From a virus (lineage: Duplodnaviria > Heunggongvirae > Uroviricota > Caudoviricetes), in the IMG/VR virus record IMGVR_UViG_2695420471_000009: a stretch of 13,451 bases of DNA. One strand, given 5' to 3'. The notes beneath the pieces were generated by a model. That model was not told the DNA's origin. It saw nothing but the letters and a program-made list of their open reading frames with translations, and did not search any database. Made by a program: the position numbers and the translations under genes. Shown piece after piece: positions 3,319 through 13,451 of this stretch. Each line of letters opens with the position of its first letter. Position 1 is the first letter of the stretch.

Positions 3319-3330
3319 NTGGATTTGCCC

Positions 3331-4236
3331 CTATATTTCCAGACATCTGTTATCACTTAACCCATTACAAGCCCGCTGCCGCAGATATTCCCGTGGCGAG
3401 CGATAACCCAGCGCACTATGCGGATGCCATTCGTTATAATGCTCGAACGCCTCTGCAAGGTTCTTTGCTGCCGTTAACCCGTCTGGTTTGGGCATGATAC
3501 TGATGTAGTCACGCTTTATCGTTTTCACGAAGCTCTCTGCTATTCCGTTACTCTCCGGACTCCGCACCGCCGTGTTCTTCGGTTCAAGTCCCAACATCCG
3601 GGCGAACTGGCGTGTTTCATTAGCCCGGTAGCATGAACCATTATCCGTCAGCCACTCCACTGGAGACGACGGAAGATCGTTGCCGAAGCGGCGTTCCACC
3701 GCTCCCAGCATGACGTCCTGTACTGTTTCACTGTTGAAGCCGCCGGTAGTCACCGCCCAGTGCAGTGCCTCACGATCACAGCAGTCCAGCGCGAACGTGA
3801 CACGCAGTCTCTCTCCGTTATCACAGCAGAACTCGAACCCGTCAGAGCACCATCGCTGATTGCTTTCTTTCACGGCCACTCTGCCTGTATGTGCCCGTTT
3901 CGATGGCGGTACAGCAGGTTTTCGCTCAAGCAACAGCGCATTCTGGCGCATGATCCGGTAAACACGTTTGGCATTGATCGCAGGCATACCATCAAGTTCT
4001 GCCTGTCTGCGAAGCAGCGCCCATACCCGACGATAACCATACGTGGGCAGCTCTCCGATAACATGGTGTATACGGAGAAGCACATCCGTATCATCAGTGT
4101 GACGACTGCGGCGGCCATCCATCCAGTCATCGGTTCGTCTGAGAATGACGTGCAACTGCGCACGCGACACCCGGAGACAACGGCTGACTAAGCTTACTCC
4201 CCATCCCCGGGCAATAAGGGCGCGTGCGCTATCCAC
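3331..4236 (-). CDS. insD: IS2 transposase OrfB (InsD), DDE catalytic domain
   Basis: 301-codon frame with GTG start, overlapping insC in the -1 frame. Sequence is typical of IS3-family OrfB. Confidence 0.85.
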
Positions 4237-4559
4237 TTTTTTGCCCGTCCATATTCAACGGCTTCTTTGAGGAGTTCATTTTCCATCGTTTTCTTGCCGA
4301 GCAGGCGCTGGAGTTCTTTAATCTGCTTCATGGCGGCAGCAAGTTCAGAGGCAGGAACAACCTGTTCTCCGGCGGCGACAGCAGTAAGACTTCCTTCCTG
4401 GTATTGCTTACGCCAGAGAAATAACTGGCTGGCTGCTACACCATGTTGCCGGGCAACGAGGGAGACCGTCATCCCCGGTTCAAAGCTCTGCTGAACAATT
4501 GCGATCTTTTCCTGTGTGGTACGCCGTCTGCGTTTCTCCGGCCCTAAGACATCAATCAT
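4194..4559 (-). CDS. insC: IS2 OrfA (InsC), HTH DNA-binding/regulatory protein
   Basis: 121 aa starting [18 protein letters not shown] at the ATG at 4559 on the minus strand (track ORF extends upstream to 4604). Helix-turn-helix and leucine-zipper-like segment. Confidence 0.85.
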
Positions 4560-4770
4560 CTGTACTCCAATGACTAGTCTAAAAACTAGTATTAAGACTA
4601 TCACTTATTTAAGTGATACTGGTTGTCTGGAGATTCAGGGGGCCAGTCTACGGACATTTTCTGCCTGTGGACCAGGAAAGTGCACGGGTGCTTTCCACTC
4701 CCATGAAGCCCGGCAATCCGCGCAGATACAGTAATAAACGAACTGACAGCAGTAAGATGGAGCGTTTCTT

Positions 4771-5028: not shown

Positions 5029-5402
5029 TGCGCCATGAGTTTATTTTACCTTATCCGCCGACGGTGAATACTTACTGGCGACGTCGTGACAACACATATT
5101 TTGTATCAAAAGCCGGTGAGCGTTATCGCCGGGATGTGGCGCTTATTGTCCGTCAGCAGCGACTGAAATTAAGCCTGTCCGGAAGACTGGCGATAAAGAT
5201 TATTGCAGAGCCACCGGATAAGCGCCGTCGTGACCTGGACAATATCCTGAAAGCACCACTGGATGCACTGACACATGCGGGAGTGTTAATGGACGATGAG
5301 CAGTTTGATGAAATCAATATCGTTCGTGCTCAGCCAGTATCTGGTGGACGTCTGGGGGTGAAGATTTACCCCATAATGCATGAAGAGCAGGTCAAAAAAT
5401 GA
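5028..5402 (+). CDS. rusA: RusA-family Holliday junction resolvase (copy 2, distinct allele)
   Basis: 124 aa, about 90% identical to copy 1, with differences at the N-terminus and C-terminus (HEEQ versus LEGQ). Confidence 0.85.
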   Translation: MRHEFILPYPPTVNTYWRRRDNTYFVSKAGERYRRDVALIVRQQRLKLSLSGRLAIKIIAEPPDKRRRDLDNILKAPLDALTHAGVLMDDEQFDEINIVRAQPVSGGRLGVKIYPIMHEEQVKK

Positions 5403-6218
5403 AACTGGAAGATTTACCGAAATACTACTCCCCAAAATCCCCTTGCCTGACCGATGCATCGGCCTCAACGTCAAAAGATGCGCTGAGTATCACTGATGTG
5501 ATGGCCGCGCAGGGCATGACACAGAATCGGGCTGAGATGGGGGTTTCTGCGTTCCTTGGGAAAATGGGCATTAGTATGAATGACAGAGAGCGGGCAACAG
5601 AATTGCTGACAGAATATGCACTCAGTCGGTGTGATCGCGTGGCGGCGTTAAGAAAACTCCCGGCAGAAATAAAACCGGCAGTGATGCGTATTATGGCTTC
5701 GTATGCGTTTGAAGATTATGCCCGTAGCGCGGCGAGCAAAAAACAGTGCCCCTGCTGTCACGGAAAAAAATTTATTGAAAGCGAGGTTTTTACAAACAAG
5801 ATCCAGTATCCGGATGGTAAGCCGCCGGTATGGGCAAAGTGTACGAAAGGTGTGTATCCGTCTTACTGGGAAGAATGGAAAAAAGTCAGGGAGGTGGTAA
5901 AAGTTGCCTGTCCGGAGTGTGGCGGAAAGGGTGAGGTTTCCACCGCCTGTAAGGATTGCCGTGGGCGTGGTGTCGCCATTCATCGTGAAGAGTCGGTAAA
6001 ACGTGGTATGCCTGTTATCAGAGACTGCCAGCGTTGTGGTGGTCGTGGCTATGAAAGACTACCATCAACGGAGGCATTTAATGCTATATGCGAGGTGACA
6101 AACCAGATAACACGCGCGTCATGGGAAAAAACAGTTAAGAAATTCTATGATGCGCTGGTGACTCGGTTTGATATTGAAGAAGCATGGGCTGAGCGGCAGT
6201 TAAAAAAGGTAACTAGGT
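5399..6218 (+). CDS. Q-like late antiterminator candidate (copy 2); 3' end runs into an N junction
   Basis: Same protein as 6526..7347 with several substitutions. At N 6219 the frame continues into rusA internal sequence, which creates the 376-aa track ORF. This is a join artefact or recombination point, not a natural fusion. Confidence 0.55.
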
Positions 6219-6219
6219 N

Positions 6220-6529
6220 CACATATTTTGTATCAAAAGCCGGTGAGCGTTATCGCCGGGATGTGGCGCTTATTGTCCGTCAGCAGCGACTGAAATTAAG
6301 CCTGTCCGGAAGACTGGCGATAAAGATTATTGCAGAGCCACCGGATAAGCGCCGTCGTGACCTGGACAATATCCTGAAAGCACCACTGGATGCACTGACA
6401 CATGCGGGAGTGTTAATGGACGATGAGCAGTTTGATGAAATCAATATCGTTCGTGGTCAGCCAGTATCTGGTGGACGTCTGGGGGTGAAGATTTACCCCA
6501 TAATGCATGAAGAGCAGGTCAAAAAATGA
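6220..6529 (+). pseudogene. RusA 3' fragment (copy 3), beginning at the N junction
   Basis: Encodes RusA residues from TYFVSKAGERY to the C-terminus. No start codon or 5' part is present. Confidence 0.6.
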
Positions 6530-7347
6530 AACTGGAAGATTTACCGAAATACTACTCCCCAAAATCCCCTTGCCTGACCGATGCATCGGCCTCAACGTCA
6601 AAAGATGCGCTGAGTATCACTGATGTGATGGCCGCGCAGGGCATGACACAGAATCGGGCTGAGATGGGGTTTTCTGCGTTCCTGGGGAAAATGGGCATCA
6701 GTATGAATGACAGGGCGCGGGCAACAGAATTACTGGCAGATTATGCACTCAGTCGGTGCGATCGTGTGGCGGCGTTGAGAAAACTTCCGGCAGAAATAAA
6801 ACCGGTAGTGATGCGCATTATGGCTTCGTACGCTTTTGAGGATTATGCCCGCAGCGCAGCGAGTAAAAAGCAGTGCCCTTGTTGCTATGGGGAAAAATTT
6901 ATTGAAAGCGTAGTTTTTACAAACAAGGTCCAGTATCCGGATGGTAAGCCGCCGGTATGGGCAAAGTGTACGAAAGGTGTGTATCCGTCTTACTGGGAAG
7001 AATGGAAAAAAGTCAGGGAGGTGGTAAAAGTTGCCTGTCCGGAGTGTGGCGGAAAGGGTGAGGTTTCCACCGCCTGTAAGGATTGCCGTGGGCGTGGTGT
7101 CGCCATTCATCGTGAAGAGTCGGTAAAACGTGGTATGCCTGTTATCAGAGACTGCCAGCGTTGTGGTGGTCGTGGCTATGAAAGACTACCATCAACGGAG
7201 GCATTTAATGCTATATGCGAGGTGACAAACCAGATAACACGCGCGTCATGGGAAAAAACAGTTAAGAAATTCTATGATGCGCTGGTGACTCGGTTTGATA
7301 TTGAAGAAGCATGGGCTGAGCGGCAGTTAAAAAAGGTAACTAGGTAA
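6526..7347 (+). CDS. Q-like late-gene antiterminator candidate (273 aa) with four DnaJ-type CxxCxGxG zinc-finger repeats
   Basis: Lies after rusA and immediately upstream of a lambda-type pR' promoter, pause element and tR' terminator. Repeats CPCCYGEK, CPECGGKG, CKDCRGRG, CQRCGGRG. Q assignment is by position and context, not by recognised homology. Confidence 0.65.
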   Translation: MKLEDLPKYYSPKSPCLTDASASTSKDALSITDVMAAQGMTQNRAEMGFSAFLGKMGISMNDRARATELLADYALSRCDRVAALRKLPAEIKPVVMRIMASYAFEDYARSAASKKQCPCCYGEKFIESVVFTNKVQYPDGKPPVWAKCTKGVYPSYWEEWKKVREVVKVACPECGGKGEVSTACKDCRGRGVAIHREESVKRGMPVIRDCQRCGGRGYERLPSTEAFNAICEVTNQITRASWEKTVKKFYDALVTRFDIEEAWAERQLKKVTR

Positions 7348-7796: not shown

Positions 7797-7827
7797 GGCT
7801 GGTGGGTGTTAGGGGCACCCACCAGCC
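7797..7827. repeat. Perfect 12-bp inverted repeat (GGCTGGTGGGTG / CACCCACCAGCC) with 7-nt loop, upstream of the methyltransferase
   Basis: Seen directly; no T-run follows, so it is not a classic terminator. The second repeat copy begins inside this loop, right after the N run. Confidence 0.5.
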
Positions 7828-7919
7828 ATCTGCTCATGCGTTGGGTTCACAAGCAAACCTCAGGCCCACTGCTTTGCGCAAAAGCAGAATGAGCCTATCA
7901 GAGACAGGCTTAATGATCC

Positions 7920-8978
7920 ATGCTTAATACTGTAAAAATATCCAGTTGTGAGTTAATCAACGCCGACTGCCTGGAATTTATCCGGTCGTTACCCGAAAAT
8001 TCTGTTGACCTGATAGTCACGGACCCGCCGTACTTTAAAGTGAAGCCTGAGGGCTGGGATAACCAGTGGAAGGGCGACGATGATTACCTGAAGTGGCTGG
8101 ACCAGTGTCTGGCGCAGTTCTGGCGGGTGCTGAAACCTGCCGGAAGTCTTTACCTGTTCTGTGGTCATCGCCTGGCATCTGATATCGAAATCATGATGCG
8201 TGAACGCTTCAGTGTGCTGAACCATATTATCTGGGCGAAGCCGTCCGGACGCTGGAACGGATGCAACAAGGAAAGCCTGCGGGCGTATTTCCCCGCCACA
8301 GAGCGCATTCTGTTCGCGGAACATTATCAGGGGCCGTATCGTCCGAAAGATGCCGGGTATGCGGCGAAGGGCAGTGCACTGAAACAGCATGTGATGGCCC
8401 CGCTGATTTCTTACTTTCGTGATGCGCGAGCTGCCCTGGGGATAACGGCAAAACAGATTGCAGATGCCACAGGAAAGAAAAACATGGTGTCGCACTGGTT
8501 CAGTGCCGGTCAGTGGCAGTTGCCGAATGAAAGCGATTATCTGAAATTACAGGCGCTGTTTGCCCGGGTGGCAGAAGAGAAGCATCGGCGTGGTGAACTG
8601 GAAAAGCTCCACCACCAGCTGGTGGATACGTATACCTCACTGAACCGGCAGTATGCGGAGCTGCTGAGTGAATATAAACATCTGCGGCGGTATTTTGGCG
8701 TGACGGTGCAGGTGCCGTATACCGATGTGTGGACGCATAAACCGGTGCAGTTCTATCCCGGGAAACATCCGTGCGAAAAACCGGCAGAAATGCTGCAGCA
8801 GATAATCAGCGCTAGCAGTCGTCCGGGTGACCTGATTGCAGATTTTTTCATGGGGTTGGGTTCGACAGTGAAAGCGGCACTGGCGCTCGGGCGTCGTGCA
8901 ATTGGCGTTGAGCTGGAGACTGAACGTTTTGAGCAGACGGTTCGGGAAGTACAGGATTTAGTCAGCCAGAACGGATGA
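7920..8978 (+). CDS. DNA methyltransferase, beta-class N6-adenine/N4-cytosine type (copy 1)
   Basis: DPPY catalytic motif (TDPPYF) near the N-terminus and AdoMet motif FxGxGS (DFFMGLGST) near the C-terminus. This motif order defines the beta class. No restriction endonuclease gene is adjacent. Confidence 0.85.
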   Translation: MLNTVKISSCELINADCLEFIRSLPENSVDLIVTDPPYFKVKPEGWDNQWKGDDDYLKWLDQCLAQFWRVLKPAGSLYLFCGHRLASDIEIMMRERFSVLNHIIWAKPSGRWNGCNKESLRAYFPATERILFAEHYQGPYRPKDAGYAAKGSALKQHVMAPLISYFRDARAALGITAKQIADATGKKNMVSHWFSAGQWQLPNESDYLKLQALFARVAEEKHRRGELEKLHHQLVDTYTSLNRQYAELLSEYKHLRRYFGVTVQVPYTDVWTHKPVQFYPGKHPCEKPAEMLQQIISASSRPGDLIADFFMGLGSTVKAALALGRRAIGVELETERFEQTVREVQDLVSQNG

Positions 8979-9018
8979 TATTGAAGAATTAATTACGCGT
9001 CGTTATTATGCGGCTCCC

Positions 9019-9094
9019 GGCCCTTTAGCTCAGTGGTGAGAGCGAGCGACTCATAATCGCCAGGTCGCTGGTTCAAATCCAGCAAGGGCCACCA
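9019..9094 (+). tRNA. ileZ: tRNA with CAU anticodon (Met or lysidine-Ile2), ileZ-like
   Basis: Cloverleaf: acceptor GGCCCTT / AAGGGCC, D-arm GCTC...GAGC, anticodon loop CTCATAA, T-arm GCTGG TTCAAAT CCAGC, then A-CCA. Confidence 0.8.
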
Positions 9095-9101
9095 TCACAT
9101 A

Positions 9102-9178
9102 CCGCCATTAGCTCATCAGGAAAGAGCGCCAGCCTTCGAAGCTGGCTGCGCGGGGTTCAAGTCCCCGATGGCGGTCCA
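9102..9178 (+). tRNA. argN: tRNA-Arg (anticodon UCG), argN-like
   Basis: Acceptor CCGCCAT / ATGGCGG, anticodon arm CCAGC CTTCGAA GCTGG, T-arm CGGGG TTCAAGT CCCCG, then CCA. Confidence 0.75.
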
Positions 9179-9191
9179 TTATCTGCATCAT

Positions 9192-9268
9192 GCGTTGTTA
9201 GCTCAGCCGGACAGAGCAATTGCCTTCTAAGCAATCGGTCACTGGTTCGAATCCAGTACAACGCGCCA
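9192..9268 (+). tRNA. argO: tRNA-Arg (anticodon UCU), argO-like
   Basis: Acceptor GCGTTGT / ACAACGC, anticodon arm ATTGC CTTCTAA GCAAT, T-arm ACTGG TTCGAAT CCAGT, then G-CCA. Confidence 0.8.
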
Positions 9269-9282
9269 CACTTATTTTCCCT

Positions 9283-9308
9283 GGCTCGCTTTTGCGGGCC
9301 TTTTTTTT
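9283..9308 (+). terminator. Intrinsic terminator after the tRNA triplet
   Basis: Stem GGCTCGC / GCGGGCC (one G-U pair) with loop TTTT, followed by eight T. Confidence 0.6.
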
Positions 9309-9314
9309 AAATGT

Positions 9315-9527
9315 CTCACAATTCAGACGGTTGACAGTTGTCTGTTTTGCGGGGAGTTTGTTAAAAGAAACTGGCATGGTGAATCCCCCTGTGCGGAGGG
9401 GCAATCAGCGAGTAGGTATATGGGATAATCGCGGATTCAGGTGCTGGTACTGAATTCACCGGGAGGCACCCGGCATCATGCAATGGCACATAGCGCCACT
9501 CTCCAGCCCTCTCCGGAGGGGCTTTTC
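9315..9527 (+). repeat. Conserved ~215-bp GC-rich structured element downstream of tRNAs (copy A)
   Basis: Three copies in the window, with TTGACA near the 5' end and a GC hairpin plus T-rich tail at the 3' end. Copy A has a weaker 3' hairpin and is followed by the N junction at 9546. Confidence 0.5.
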
Positions 9528-9546
9528 TGTGCCGGATACATCACAG

Positions 9547-9831: not shown

Positions 9832-9911
9832 CCGCCATTAGCTTATCAGGAAGAGCAGACGACACGATAACAGGGTTGTTGGTGCGGGGGCGGGTCCCCG
9901 ATGGCGGTCCA
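9832..9911 (+). pseudogene. Degenerate argN-like tRNA (anticodon arm replaced, non-canonical T-loop)
   Basis: Acceptor and D-arm match tRNA-Arg(UCG), but the region between D-arm and T-stem is unrelated and the T-loop lacks TTCRA. Confidence 0.5.
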
Positions 9912-9924
9912 TTATCGGTATTCA

Positions 9925-10001
9925 GCGTTGTTAGCTCAGCCGGACAGAGCAATTGCCTTCTAAGCAATCGGTCACTGGTTCGAATCCAGTACAGCGCGCC
10001 A
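9925..10001 (+). tRNA. argO: tRNA-Arg (anticodon UCU), argO-like, variant with G-U pair in acceptor stem
   Basis: Same as 9192..9268 except the 3' acceptor strand reads ACAGCGC (A to G change gives a T-G wobble). Confidence 0.7.
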
Positions 10002-10111
10002 TATTCATTCTTCCAGATTCCTTCCGGCAGAGCCTTATACTGAAATATACCTGGCTCAGGATATTGTTGAAAATATTTTATGTTTGTCAAAAATAAAAGT
10101 TCTGTTAAGTA

Positions 10112-10465
10112 TTGATTGAGTGTTTGTTATACGGTCTAATGGTTTTTTCAGCATTAAATATTTATCATTCATATGGTGTGGGTAGAGTGAATATTGATGA
10201 GGCGTCGGGGTGTTTCATCCTTAGGCAGCGTATTGATATAGTCAATGCAGCACGAGCAAAGGCCTTCAGCCGTTTGACAGTTTTGTTCTGTACTCCTGAT
10301 CGTCTTTCGGGAAGAGACGTTATTATTCTGAATAGTGATGCTATACAGAGGGTTTGCGATGAGTTCATGGTTGCTAATTCAGAATTATTTGCTCTTGTTC
10401 AGGAGTACAACAGAATAGCCAGGACCTGTGGTATGGATGAACTTCGGATTACTCATCTGGGGTAG
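10112..10465 (+). CDS. Hypothetical protein in the variable insert downstream of argO (start uncertain)
   Basis: Track ORF starts at TTG; first ATG is 10139 with no clear SD. Lies in a unique 650-bp segment absent from the other two tRNA-downstream copies. No family recognised. Confidence 0.3.
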   Translation: MIECLLYGLMVFSALNIYHSYGVGRVNIDEASGCFILRQRIDIVNAARAKAFSRLTVLFCTPDRLSGRDVIILNSDAIQRVCDEFMVANSELFALVQEYNRIARTCGMDELRITHLG

Positions 10466-10668: not shown

Positions 10669-10893
10669 TCACAATTCAGGCGGTTGACTGTTGTCTGGTT
10701 TGCGGGGAGTTTGTTAAAAGAAACTGGCATGGTGAATCCCCCTGTGCGGAGGGGCAATCAGCGAGTAGGTATATGGGATAATCGCGGATTCAGGTGCTGG
10801 TACTGAATTCACCGGGAGGCACCCGGCACCATGCAATGGCACATAGCGCCACTCTCCAGCCCCTCTCCGGAGGGGCTGTTTATATTGATTTTG
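10669..10893 (+). repeat. Conserved GC-rich structured element downstream of tRNAs (copy B, divergent)
   Basis: Homologous to 9315..9527 and 12450..12675 with scattered substitutions (TTGACT instead of TTGACA). Ends with a perfect 8-bp hairpin and T-rich tail. Confidence 0.5.
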
Positions 10894-10934
10894 TCAGATG
10901 TGAGTAAACTCCTTATGGACTAAAACAACAAAGT

Positions 10935-10944
10935 NNNNNNNNNN
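10935..10944. other. Assembly gap (10 N)
   Basis: Run of N. Both flanks end inside inverted-repeat hairpins. Confidence 0.95.
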
Positions 10945-11054
10945 TAGGGGCACCCACCAGCCATCTGCTCATGCGTTGGGTTCACAAGCAAACCTCAGGC
11001 CCACTGCTTTGCGCAAAAGCAGAATGAGCCTATCAGAGACAGGCTTAATGATCC

Positions 11055-12113
11055 ATGCTTAATACTGTAAAAATATCCAGTTGTGAGTTAATCAACGCCG
11101 ACTGCCTGGAATTTATCCGGTCGTTACCCGAAAATTCTGTTGACCTGATAGTCACGGACCCGCCGTACTTTAAAGTGAAGCCTGAGGGCTGGGATAACCA
11201 GTGGAAGGGCGACGATGATTACCTGAAGTGGCTGGACCAGTGTCTGGCGCAGTTCTGGCGGGTGCTGAAACCTGCCGGAAGTCTTTACCTGTTCTGTGGT
11301 CATCGCCTGGCATCTGATATCGAAATCATGATGCGTGAACGCTTCAGTGTGCTGAACCATATTATCTGGGCGAAGCCGTCCGGACGCTGGAACGGATGCA
11401 ACAAGGAAAGCCTGCGGGCGTATTTCCCCGCCACAGAGCGCATTCTGTTCGCGGAACATTATCAGGGGCCGTATCGTCCGAAAGATGCCGGGTATGCGGC
11501 GAAGGGCAGTGCACTGAAACAGCATGTGATGGCCCCGCTGATTTCTTACTTTCGTGATGCGCGAGCTGCCCTGGGGATAACGGCAAAACAGATTGCAGAT
11601 GCCACAGGAAAGAAAAACATGGTGTCGCACTGGTTCAGTGCCGGTCAGTGGCAGTTGCCGAATGAAAGCGATTATCTGAAATTACAGGCGCTGTTTGCCC
11701 GGGTGGCAGAAGAGAAGCATCGGCGTGGTGAACTGGAAAAGCTCCACCACCAGCTGGTGGATACGTATACCTCACTGAACCGGCAGTATGCGGAGCTGCT
11801 GAGTGAATATAAACATCTGCGGCGGTATTTTGGCGTGACGGTGCAGGTGCCGTATACCGATGTGTGGACGCATAAACCGGTGCAGTTCTATCCCGGGAAA
11901 CATCCGTGCGAAAAACCGGCAGAAATGCTGCAGCAGATAATCAGCGCTAGCAGTCGTCCGGGTGACCTGATTGCAGATTTTTTCATGGGGTTGGGTTCGA
12001 CAGTGAAAGCGGCACTGGCGCTCGGGCGTCGTGCAATTGGCGTTGAGCTGGAGACTGAACGTTTTGAGCAGACGGTTCGGGAAGTACAGGATTTAGTCAG
12101 CCAGAACGGATGA
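11055..12113 (+). CDS. DNA methyltransferase, beta-class (copy 2, identical to 7920..8978)
   Basis: Identical 352-aa translation. Part of a ~1.7-kb exact repeat (7810..9500 matches 10945..12635, offset 3135). Confidence 0.85.
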   Translation: MLNTVKISSCELINADCLEFIRSLPENSVDLIVTDPPYFKVKPEGWDNQWKGDDDYLKWLDQCLAQFWRVLKPAGSLYLFCGHRLASDIEIMMRERFSVLNHIIWAKPSGRWNGCNKESLRAYFPATERILFAEHYQGPYRPKDAGYAAKGSALKQHVMAPLISYFRDARAALGITAKQIADATGKKNMVSHWFSAGQWQLPNESDYLKLQALFARVAEEKHRRGELEKLHHQLVDTYTSLNRQYAELLSEYKHLRRYFGVTVQVPYTDVWTHKPVQFYPGKHPCEKPAEMLQQIISASSRPGDLIADFFMGLGSTVKAALALGRRAIGVELETERFEQTVREVQDLVSQNG

Positions 12114-12153
12114 TATTGAAGAATTAATTACGCGTCGTTATTATGCGGCTCCC

Positions 12154-12229
12154 GGCCCTTTAGCTCAGTGGTGAGAGCGAGCGACTCATAATCGCCAGGT
12201 CGCTGGTTCAAATCCAGCAAGGGCCACCA
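12154..12229 (+). tRNA. ileZ: tRNA with CAU anticodon (ileZ-like), copy 3
   Basis: Identical to 9019..9094. Confidence 0.8.
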
Positions 12230-12236
12230 TCACATA

Positions 12237-12313
12237 CCGCCATTAGCTCATCAGGAAAGAGCGCCAGCCTTCGAAGCTGGCTGCGCGGGGTTCAAGTCCC
12301 CGATGGCGGTCCA
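12237..12313 (+). tRNA. argN: tRNA-Arg (UCG), copy 3
   Basis: Identical to 9102..9178. Confidence 0.75.
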
Positions 12314-12326
12314 TTATCTGCATCAT

Positions 12327-12403
12327 GCGTTGTTAGCTCAGCCGGACAGAGCAATTGCCTTCTAAGCAATCGGTCACTGGTTCGAATCCAGTACAACGCG
12401 CCA
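12327..12403 (+). tRNA. argO: tRNA-Arg (UCU), copy 3
   Basis: Identical to 9192..9268. Confidence 0.8.
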
Positions 12404-12417
12404 CACTTATTTTCCCT

Positions 12418-12443
12418 GGCTCGCTTTTGCGGGCCTTTTTTTT
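12418..12443 (+). terminator. Intrinsic terminator after tRNA triplet (copy 3)
   Basis: Identical to 9283..9308. Confidence 0.6.
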
Positions 12444-12449
12444 AAATGT

Positions 12450-12675
12450 CTCACAATTCAGACGGTTGACAGTTGTCTGTTTTGCGGGGAGTTTGTTAAA
12501 AGAAACTGGCATGGTGAATCCCCCTGTGCGGAGGGGCAATCAGCGAGTAGGTATATGGGATAATCGCGGATTCAGGTGCTGGTACTGAATTCACCGGGAG
12601 GCACCCGGCACCATGCAATGGCACATAGCGCCACTCTCCAGCCCCTCTCCGGAGGGGCTGTTTATATTGATTTTG
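12450..12675 (+). repeat. Conserved GC-rich structured element downstream of tRNAs (copy C)
   Basis: TTGACA at 12466; 3' hairpin AGCCCCTC TCCG GAGGGGCT at 12640..12659 followed by a T-rich tail. Confidence 0.5.
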
Positions 12676-12691
12676 TCAGATGTGAGTAAAC

Positions 12692-12725
12692 TCCTTATGG
12701 ACTTTGTTGTTTTAGTCCATAAGGA
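12692..12725. repeat. Perfect 11-bp inverted repeat (TCCTTATGGAC / GTCCATAAGGA) with 12-nt loop
   Basis: Seen directly. Marks the boundary between the GC-rich element and the AT-rich island. Confidence 0.5.
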
Positions 12726-13030
12726 CATATTTGCAGAGTGCAACGGTTATTAAAGCATTCATTCAATACGTTATCTGTATTTGTAGGGCATTCCTGGCTA
12801 TTTTTGATTGAATTCCAGAATGTTTTATTGAATGGTACTACGTTGTAAATGGTTACAGGTAGCACTTTGTTATTGAGCATGATGCCTGTGTGAGTCAGTG
12901 TAAATATACTTTCAGGAGGTAAGAAAGCATCCGATTGATACCAGATTATTAATTTTATTTTACTCCATATGACTGAAAAAGATATTCCGCATGATGGCTG
13001 GATAACTGTATCAATCACAATCCACTTCAT
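12695..13030 (-). CDS. Hypothetical 111-aa protein on the reverse strand within an AT-rich island
   Basis: ATG at 13030 preceded by AAGGAA SD (5-nt spacer) and a TTTACA / TATACT promoter-like pair. A 111-codon open frame is unlikely by chance in DNA this AT-rich. No family recognised. Confidence 0.45.
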
Positions 13031-13290
13031 TTAGTTTCCTTGTTTATGCCTTGCTGGTGATGTTCTGAAAAGTATAAATGATATTTTTGAATGTAAACCA
13101 TAGAGCAGAATTATTTTTCTGATGTTGTTTATTGTTTATTTAAATGCAGGGTGGTTTATATCTCGTCTTGTAGTTTATCCATGCATATCTGCTTGATAAT
13201 CAGGTTTTTATTTAAGGTATGGTTTTGTGTTTTTTCTGTATTACATGTCAGGTATTTTAAAGAATTATTTTTCAGATGGTGGAAAGAACC

Positions 13291-13451
13291 ATGGCATTTA
13301 AACACTATGATGTTGTCAGGGCGGCGCCGCCGTCAGATCTTGCGGAAAAGCTGACACATAAACTGAAAGAGGGCTGGCAGCCGTTTGGTAGTCCGGTGGC
13401 CATAACCCCTTATACCCTGAGGTGTACTGGCAATAGCGGACACTACCATTT
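13291..13451 (+). CDS. Conserved prophage hypothetical protein, N-terminal part (continues beyond window)
   Basis: ATG at 13291; frame open to the window edge (MAFKHYDVVRAAPPSDLAEKLTHKLKEGWQPFGSPV...). GC content returns to the prophage-backbone level. Probably the first gene of the lysis-proximal late region. Confidence 0.55.
   Translation, partial: MAFKHYDVVRAAPPSDLAEKLTHKLKEGWQPFGSPVAITPYTLRCTGNSGHYH

Follow-up and report, generated by a model that had tools for sequence, protein, structure and literature searches.

The AT-rich island at positions 12692-13290 of the window (the whole 13,451-nucleotide stretch of phage DNA analysed here) is almost certainly the iraL cassette of a lambdoid prophage, whose product, IraL, blocks RssB and so stabilises sigma-S. 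Our analysis itself establishes the identity of the gene, the identity of its promoter and its genomic position; the gene was characterised in 2014, and the finding is therefore real but not new. At 32.6% G+C, compared with a mean of 50.0% (sd 4.0%) over the 599-bp stretches of the window, the island is the most AT-rich stretch present, and the eight 599-bp stretches of lowest G+C all begin between 12651 and 12721. The open reading frame has 34.5% G+C and the region upstream of it, 13031-13291, has 29.5%. The island ends at 13290, the last base ahead of the ATG of a DUF1737 late gene (13291, plus strand). A first-pass annotation of this DNA had described a segment far more AT-rich than its flanks carrying a reverse-strand 111-residue open reading frame, and both statements hold: the list of open reading frames and the translation give an intact frame with an ATG start.

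12695..13030, minus strand: iraL coding sequence, 111 aa, RssB anti-adaptor of the IraM family (profile, structure and identity matches).

The identity of this protein is carried by three kinds of match. The NCBIfam model NF007393 ('anti-adapter protein IraM') is matched at 162 bits, where the cut-off is 121, and spans residues 1-110 of the 111, and the sequence of IraM in PDB 8TWD (chain A) is matched without gaps over residues 1-78 (E = 6.3e-31), from which the protein is predicted to have the PmrD-like beta-barrel core of the solved IraM structure. K-12 IraM is 61% identical over 107 residues, without gaps, and IraL of CFT073 (WP_000871291.1) is identical at 110 of 111 residues, the sole change being L74S; the corresponding genes (NC_004431.1 1343465-1343800 in CFT073) share 99.4% nucleotide identity. 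The CFT073 gene was renamed iraL by Hryckowian et al., mBio 2014 (PMC4045071). With at least 95% identity to CFT073 iraL, together with the iraL promoter and start, taken as the mark of the IraL subfamily, the sequence places the gene of the window within it. The exact protein, with serine at position 74, is encoded by chromosomes of Shigella sonnei, among them HE616528.1 (strain 53G), and the DNA from 12481 to the window end at 13451 is 100% identical to S. sonnei loci. In complete genomes of E. coli, well over a thousand of them, PGAP names the same locus IraM. A Pfam-A scan of the open reading frame gave no significant match, PmrD being absent at E <= 1; a sub-threshold match to Nairovirus NSm (E = 0.056) was dismissed as noise, the NCBIfam and PDB matches being decisive instead. 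Unlike our own scan, a precomputed table lists Pfam PF11183 (PmrD) for the exact same protein, a disagreement that probably reflects different Pfam versions; the listing fits the reported likeness of the IraM and PmrD folds. The frame has a dN/dS of 0.15 relative to K-12 iraM and of 0.12 relative to a paralogue in Stx2c-type phages (dS > 1 in these comparisons), and between the three clades of the family (IraM, IraL and Stx-phage) dN/dS is 0.10-0.15 with dS of 1.1-2.0. These low values indicate purifying selection on the family and hence a frame maintained as a protein, its coding signal lying well above chance.

The iraL transcript's 5' end was mapped in CFT073 by 5' RACE to ACATCACCAGCAAGGCATAAACAAGGAAACCA (PMC4045071). 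This string is found exactly in CFT073 and at 31 of 32 bases in the reverse complement of window positions 13063..13032, and because of this match the transcription start is placed at 13063 on the minus strand. The control and transcript elements of the gene are as follows.

13031..13063, minus strand: iraL 5' UTR, from the 5' RACE match, with the Shine-Dalgarno sequence AAGGA at 13041-13037.
13071..13097, minus strand: predicted sigma-70-type iraL promoter, with -10 TATACT at 13076-13071 and -35 TTTACA at 13097-13092.
13064..13163, minus strand: -100 to -1 region, which suffices in CFT073 for native iraL expression.
12693..12724, no strand assigned: inverted repeat of 11 bp with a 10-nt loop, across the iraL stop codon, seen in the sequence.

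The strong Shine-Dalgarno sequence and plausible promoter of the first-pass annotation are thus borne out, the former lying six bases ahead of the ATG and the latter by the mapped start. The promoter hexamers were assigned by reading the sequence against this start; both are unchanged in CFT073, and the predicted spacer between them is short, at 15 nt. A consensus promoter scan restricted to spacers of 16-18 nt missed this promoter because its spacer lies outside that range, and the two sites that the scan did report were at chance level. Plasmid and Tn7 complementation constructs carrying the region from -100 to the end of the iraL gene were used in the published work, and this fragment raised sigma-S in K-12 and complemented the CFT073 mutant (PMC4045071). 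It corresponds to window 13163 down to 12695, and from -100 to +33 the window differs from CFT073 at two bases, 13033 (in the 5' UTR) and 13064 (position -1). At the other end of the gene, the inverted repeat encodes the C-terminal residues QQSP that are specific to IraL, and it is possible that it forms a 3' stem-loop of the iraL mRNA; its left arm is missing from the Stx2c-phage paralogue. The RNA of 12735-12625 (minus strand) folds with -39.7 kcal/mol (z = -5.9), and of the two stable hairpins past the iraL stop neither has a U-run behind it on the minus strand. AT-rich DNA such as that of the island is a typical target of H-NS, and expression of the window's iraL could therefore be condition-dependent.

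The gene lies between the tRNAs and the first late gene of the prophage, among the following elements.

12154..12403, plus strand: tRNA trio of the ileZ/argN/argO type (anticodons CAU, UCG and UCU), by ARAGORN and Rfam.
12441..12446, no strand assigned: stx2AB insertion point of Stx2c-type phages, by pairwise alignment with Stx2a_WGPS8.
12480..12669, plus strand: STnc100 sRNA element (Rfam RF02076, 133.6 bits, gathering score 47).
13164..13290, no strand assigned: remaining AT-rich spacer up to the DUF1737 start codon, in which no separate function was identified.
13291..13420, plus strand: 5' part of the DUF1737 (yjhS/nanS-p-type) first late gene, by PGAP on identical loci.
13421..13451, no strand assigned: IS600 terminus interrupting the DUF1737 gene, by an exact 34-base match.

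The tRNA trio is 92-94% identical to that of Stx2 phages, the 5' part of DUF1737 matches yjhS of Stx1 phages at 96%, and the spacer is about 99% conserved with CFT073 and only partly alignable with the Stx2c-phage locus. The first-pass annotation had set the island between a 'tRNA-downstream element' and the next late gene, as is indeed the case: the element is the STnc100 copy at 12480-12669, whose terminator-like hairpin (12639-12660) faces the iraL 3' end, and beyond the island come DUF1737/yjhS and the holin. In CFT073 and E. coli strain 131 the order is Q, (methylase), tRNAs, (STnc100), iraL, DUF1737, holin, lysozyme. The same annotation had equated the position with the stx locus, which stands in so far as the island falls in the moron region, flanked by the Q-dependent tRNAs on one side and the first late gene on the other, and fails in that stx2AB enters at 12441-12446. 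In the alignment with Stx2a_WGPS8, homology stops past the argO terminator and restarts at 12447, with 1.33 kb of stx2A-stx2B between, followed in the phage by an STnc100-like element, a minus-strand gene for a 107-residue IraM-family protein and yjhS. The insertion point thus lies about 250 bp to the left of the iraL island, ahead of STnc100, and the flanks common to Stx phages reach to about 12441 on the tRNA side and begin at 13291 on the DUF1737/yjhS side. This alignment rules out a strict model of iraL as alternative cargo to stx; as judged from sequence, iraL is a neighbour of the stx slot rather than its allele, and both cargos coexist. The island also shows the presence/absence polymorphism among lambdoid prophages to be expected of a moron. 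Phage JLK-2012 has an empty site, with homology ending near 12630 and resuming near 13313 and about 190 unrelated bases between, and a survey of 5426 complete E. coli genomes finds one to three copies of the island in 1446 of them. Deviant base composition and this polymorphism, together with a promoter of its own at the mapped start site 13063, bear out the view of a self-contained, AT-rich and oppositely oriented cargo gene, or moron, in a lambdoid prophage. The DUF1737 gene is broken by IS600 after 130 bases, exactly as in S. sonnei chromosomes: the 34-base match adjoins an 'IS3-like element IS600 family transposase', and S. sonnei genomes have the same junction. As IS600 cuts this gene, the lysis module is disconnected and the prophage is decayed.

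The window as a whole has to be read as a scaffold of five blocks joined by N, not as continuous natural sequence. The N characters stand at 3319, 6219, 9556 and 10935-10944, each exactly on the junction of an internal repeat, and since every junction carries an N the repeated modules are scaffolding products of repeat-ended contigs. Artefactual repeats of this kind are three tRNA clusters, three STnc100 copies, two methylase genes and two Q genes, with apparent duplications of 5093-6218 as 6220-7345 and of 7810-9526 as 10945-12663 (the latter at 99.8%), and a Q-RusA 'fusion' open reading frame (5399-6529, 376 aa) is likewise an assembly product; a real tandem amplification of tRNA sets, methylases and Q genes, with a genuine Q-RusA fusion, is ruled out by the N at every junction. 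The iraL feature lies wholly within the last block, 10945-13451, and its immediate context is therefore sound. The left flank of this block is nearly identical to block 3 (7810-9526) and identity to the S. sonnei iraL locus begins only at 12481; the prophage backbone shown to the left of iraL may therefore not be the one next to it in the source genome. The end of block 4 (10900-10934, compared with 12682-12724) lies inside the 3' inverted repeat of iraL with the loop inverted, reading AAAACAACAAAGT instead of TTGTTGTTTTAGT, which looks like a fold-back artefact of a contig end. Blocks 4 and 5 may describe one single iraL gene with two competing left flanks, a methylase with three tRNAs in one case and Q with two tRNAs and DUF3927 in the other.

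Other elements were noted across the blocks. STnc100 copies at 12480-12669, 10698-10887 and 9345-9534 score 124-134 bits, each past a prophage tRNA cluster, and an STnc100-like element also lies just past stx2B in Stx2c-type phages. An IS2 copy (3320-4650, minus strand) begins directly after the N at 3319, with a TnpB of 301 aa (727 bits) and an open reading frame of 136 aa matching TnpA (276 bits). The Rfam sok antitoxin RNA is found at 881-1056 (112 bits) and is part of a toxin-antitoxin locus of the hok/sok type (hokD-like) in the prophage's early-right region. A second AT-rich patch (9901-10465, 37-38% G+C) follows the two-tRNA cluster of block 4; loci homologous to it carry a small open reading frame of the DUF3927 family, and a 117-aa frame with a TTG start at 10112-10465 gave no family match.

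What the gene is likely to do is known from other strains. Deletion of iraL lowers log-phase sigma-S in CFT073 and in S. sonnei and makes sigma-S decay twice as fast, its half-life falling from about 5 to about 2.5 min, and in a two-hybrid assay IraL binds RssB's N-terminal domain, the only RssB domain bound by this log-phase-active anti-adaptor (PMC4045071). IraM, a beta-barrel, spans the two domains of RssB and its segmented helical linker, and it lies over the RssB 4-5-5 face, the site of sigma-S binding (PMC10844676). RssB binding and the stabilisation of sigma-S against ClpXP were shown for the CFT073 protein, and by analogy would extend to the window protein, 99% identical to it. In the mechanism that we propose, iraL would be transcribed leftward from its own sigma-70-type promoter at 13063, against the Q-dependent late transcript, to give a 111-residue protein with the PmrD-like beta-barrel fold of IraM and a cysteine-rich tail. 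This protein would bind the response-regulator-like adaptor RssB, which would then be unable to deliver sigma-S (RpoS) to the ClpXP protease; sigma-S would be stabilised and the general stress regulon partly switched on, even in exponential growth. In growing uropathogenic E. coli and Shigella, RpoS is thus lifted by a horizontally acquired prophage gene, with an effect on stress tolerance. All five cysteines (14, 81, 92, 97 and 102), the 'several Cys' of the first-pass annotation, are kept in IraM, IraL and the Stx-phage clade, and four of them belong to the C-terminal tail cut off for IraM crystallisation. Among the 15 RssB-contact residues listed for IraM (PMC10844676), 11 are identical in the window protein and 4 are substituted. 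Cluster I, which contacts RssB's N-terminal domain, is identical at 5/5 positions; cluster II is identical at 3/5, with T13S and L75I, and cluster III at 2/4, with H63N and I64V, while Pro66 is kept. T13S, L75I and I64V are conservative and H63N is less so, and all four substitutions fall in the clusters touching the RssB C-terminal domain and linker. They fit, without proving, the reported loss of C-terminal-domain binding by IraL. The L74S change adjoins contact residue 75, and this exact variant is the S. sonnei allele.

Several other readings of the island were weighed. The first-pass annotation, which recognised no family behind the cysteines, proposed a candidate uncharacterised moron, that is, a cysteine-containing protein of a new family in the toxin slot. 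The want of a significant Pfam-A match and the position in a moron-rich region past the tRNAs would suit such a protein, but NF007393, 8TWD and the 110/111 match to CFT073 IraL supply the family, and the protein is already represented by a curated model of the family, by a structure that has been solved and by a paper devoted to its function, in which IraL is an experimentally characterised RssB anti-adaptor (PMC4045071); stx moreover inserts elsewhere, and an IraM-family gene coexists with it, so that this proposal is scarcely credible. That the gene might instead be a true IraM orthologue, with a PhoP/PhoQ-dependent promoter, induction by low Mg2+ and contact with both RssB domains, is suggested by the name given by PGAP and NCBIfam and by the IraM-RssB contact residues, most of which are kept; set against this, the protein is only 61% identical to IraM, yet 99% to IraL. 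The upstream regions of K-12 iraM and the window gene do not align, only the coding parts doing so, and a transfer of the K-12 iraM regulation to the window was rejected on this ground. The repeats of a PhoP box are spaced by 5 nt; the sole upstream TGTTTA repeat, at 13126-13138, has a 1-nt spacing by eye, and by eye no properly spaced PhoP-box repeat was seen upstream of the open reading frame. Neither the iraM-type upstream region nor the PhoP-dependent promoter of K-12-type IraM is thus found here, and IraL is reported to be active in log phase and to bind RssB's N-terminal domain only (PMC4045071), so that orthology to IraM is most improbable.

It is also very unlikely that the copy in the window is a remnant without effect on sigma-S, whether silenced, for instance by H-NS, or inactivated by L74S. 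The prophage is decayed, with the adjacent DUF1737 gene cut by IS600, the DNA is very AT-rich and L74S is non-conservative, all of which would agree with a remnant; yet the open reading frame, the Shine-Dalgarno sequence and both promoter hexamers are intact and match those of CFT073, the family is under purifying selection, and the exact allele and locus are those of S. sonnei, in which deletion of iraL is reported to lower log-phase sigma-S (PMC4045071), although the allele studied there may differ from that of the window. We therefore favour the reading of the island as an iraL cassette, and its sequence suggests that the window copy is transcribed and active.

The effect of iraL on RpoS was established in 2014, and finding the gene again adds nothing new to it. 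What is added is a precise map position for iraL relative to where stx inserts, the recognition of STnc100 in the 'tRNA-downstream element', and a third, apparently unstudied clade of the IraM family beside the toxin genes in Stx2c phages. In the Stx2-converting phage Stx2a_WGPS8 the gene of this clade (AP012540.1 22076-22399, minus strand, 107 aa) is found some 300 bp downstream of stx2B, in antisense orientation, and the protein is 74% identical to IraL and 65% identical to IraM. The clade is found in 41 Stx2/Stx2c phage records, most without annotation of the gene, and 236 of the 5426 E. coli genomes have it too, O157:H7 for the most part; literature searches on this Stx2c-phage paralogue found no functional study. 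Immediately downstream of the point where stx inserts, the arrangement of STnc100 followed by an antisense IraM-family gene is conserved. If this layout is functional, convergent transcription might link the state of the prophage to sigma-S control, an idea that we regard as rather unlikely and that has the conserved geometry as its sole basis. Were it true, iraL would upon induction be met head-on, and switched off, by Q-antiterminated late (and toxin) transcription; in the lysogen, read-through into the lysis genes would be damped by the transcription of iraL and by its hairpins.

Among known systems, the window gene is closest to iraL of CFT073 and S. sonnei (PMC4045071), with 110/111 residues shared with the former and all with the latter. 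CFT073 iraL shares the mapped 5' end (31/32 bases), the promoter hexamers and the slot between the tRNAs/STnc100 and DUF1737-holin, and differs at L74S and at bases 13033 and 13064; the IS600 cut of DUF1737 is the window's. IraM (YcgW) of K-12 is homologous over its full 107 residues, is an RssB anti-adaptor and has the five cysteines, but its gene has a different, non-aligning promoter and stands just beyond the annotated end of the e14 prophage, and IraL is longer by four residues (QQSP) at its C-terminus. Mg2+ starvation induces IraM, which engages both domains of RssB, in contrast to IraL, which is active in log phase and engages only the N-terminal one (PMC4045071). The Stx2c-type phages 2851, 1717 and Stx2a_WGPS8 carry an IraM-family gene in the same place and the same antisense orientation, between STnc100 and yjhS/DUF1737. 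Its product retains all invariant core residues and all cysteines of the window IraL, but it forms a distinct third clade, of 107 residues, without the QQSP tail and without the left hairpin arm. RssC of Salmonella is an IraL/IraM-like anti-adaptor according to the IraL paper, with rssC about 49% identical to iraL and about 47% to iraM, and is reported only in Salmonella (PMC4045071). Only PmrD (PDB 4HN7) otherwise shares the IraM fold, and like IraM it binds the receiver domain of a response regulator (PMC10844676); unlike IraM and IraL, it has PmrA as its target, and the outcome is different.
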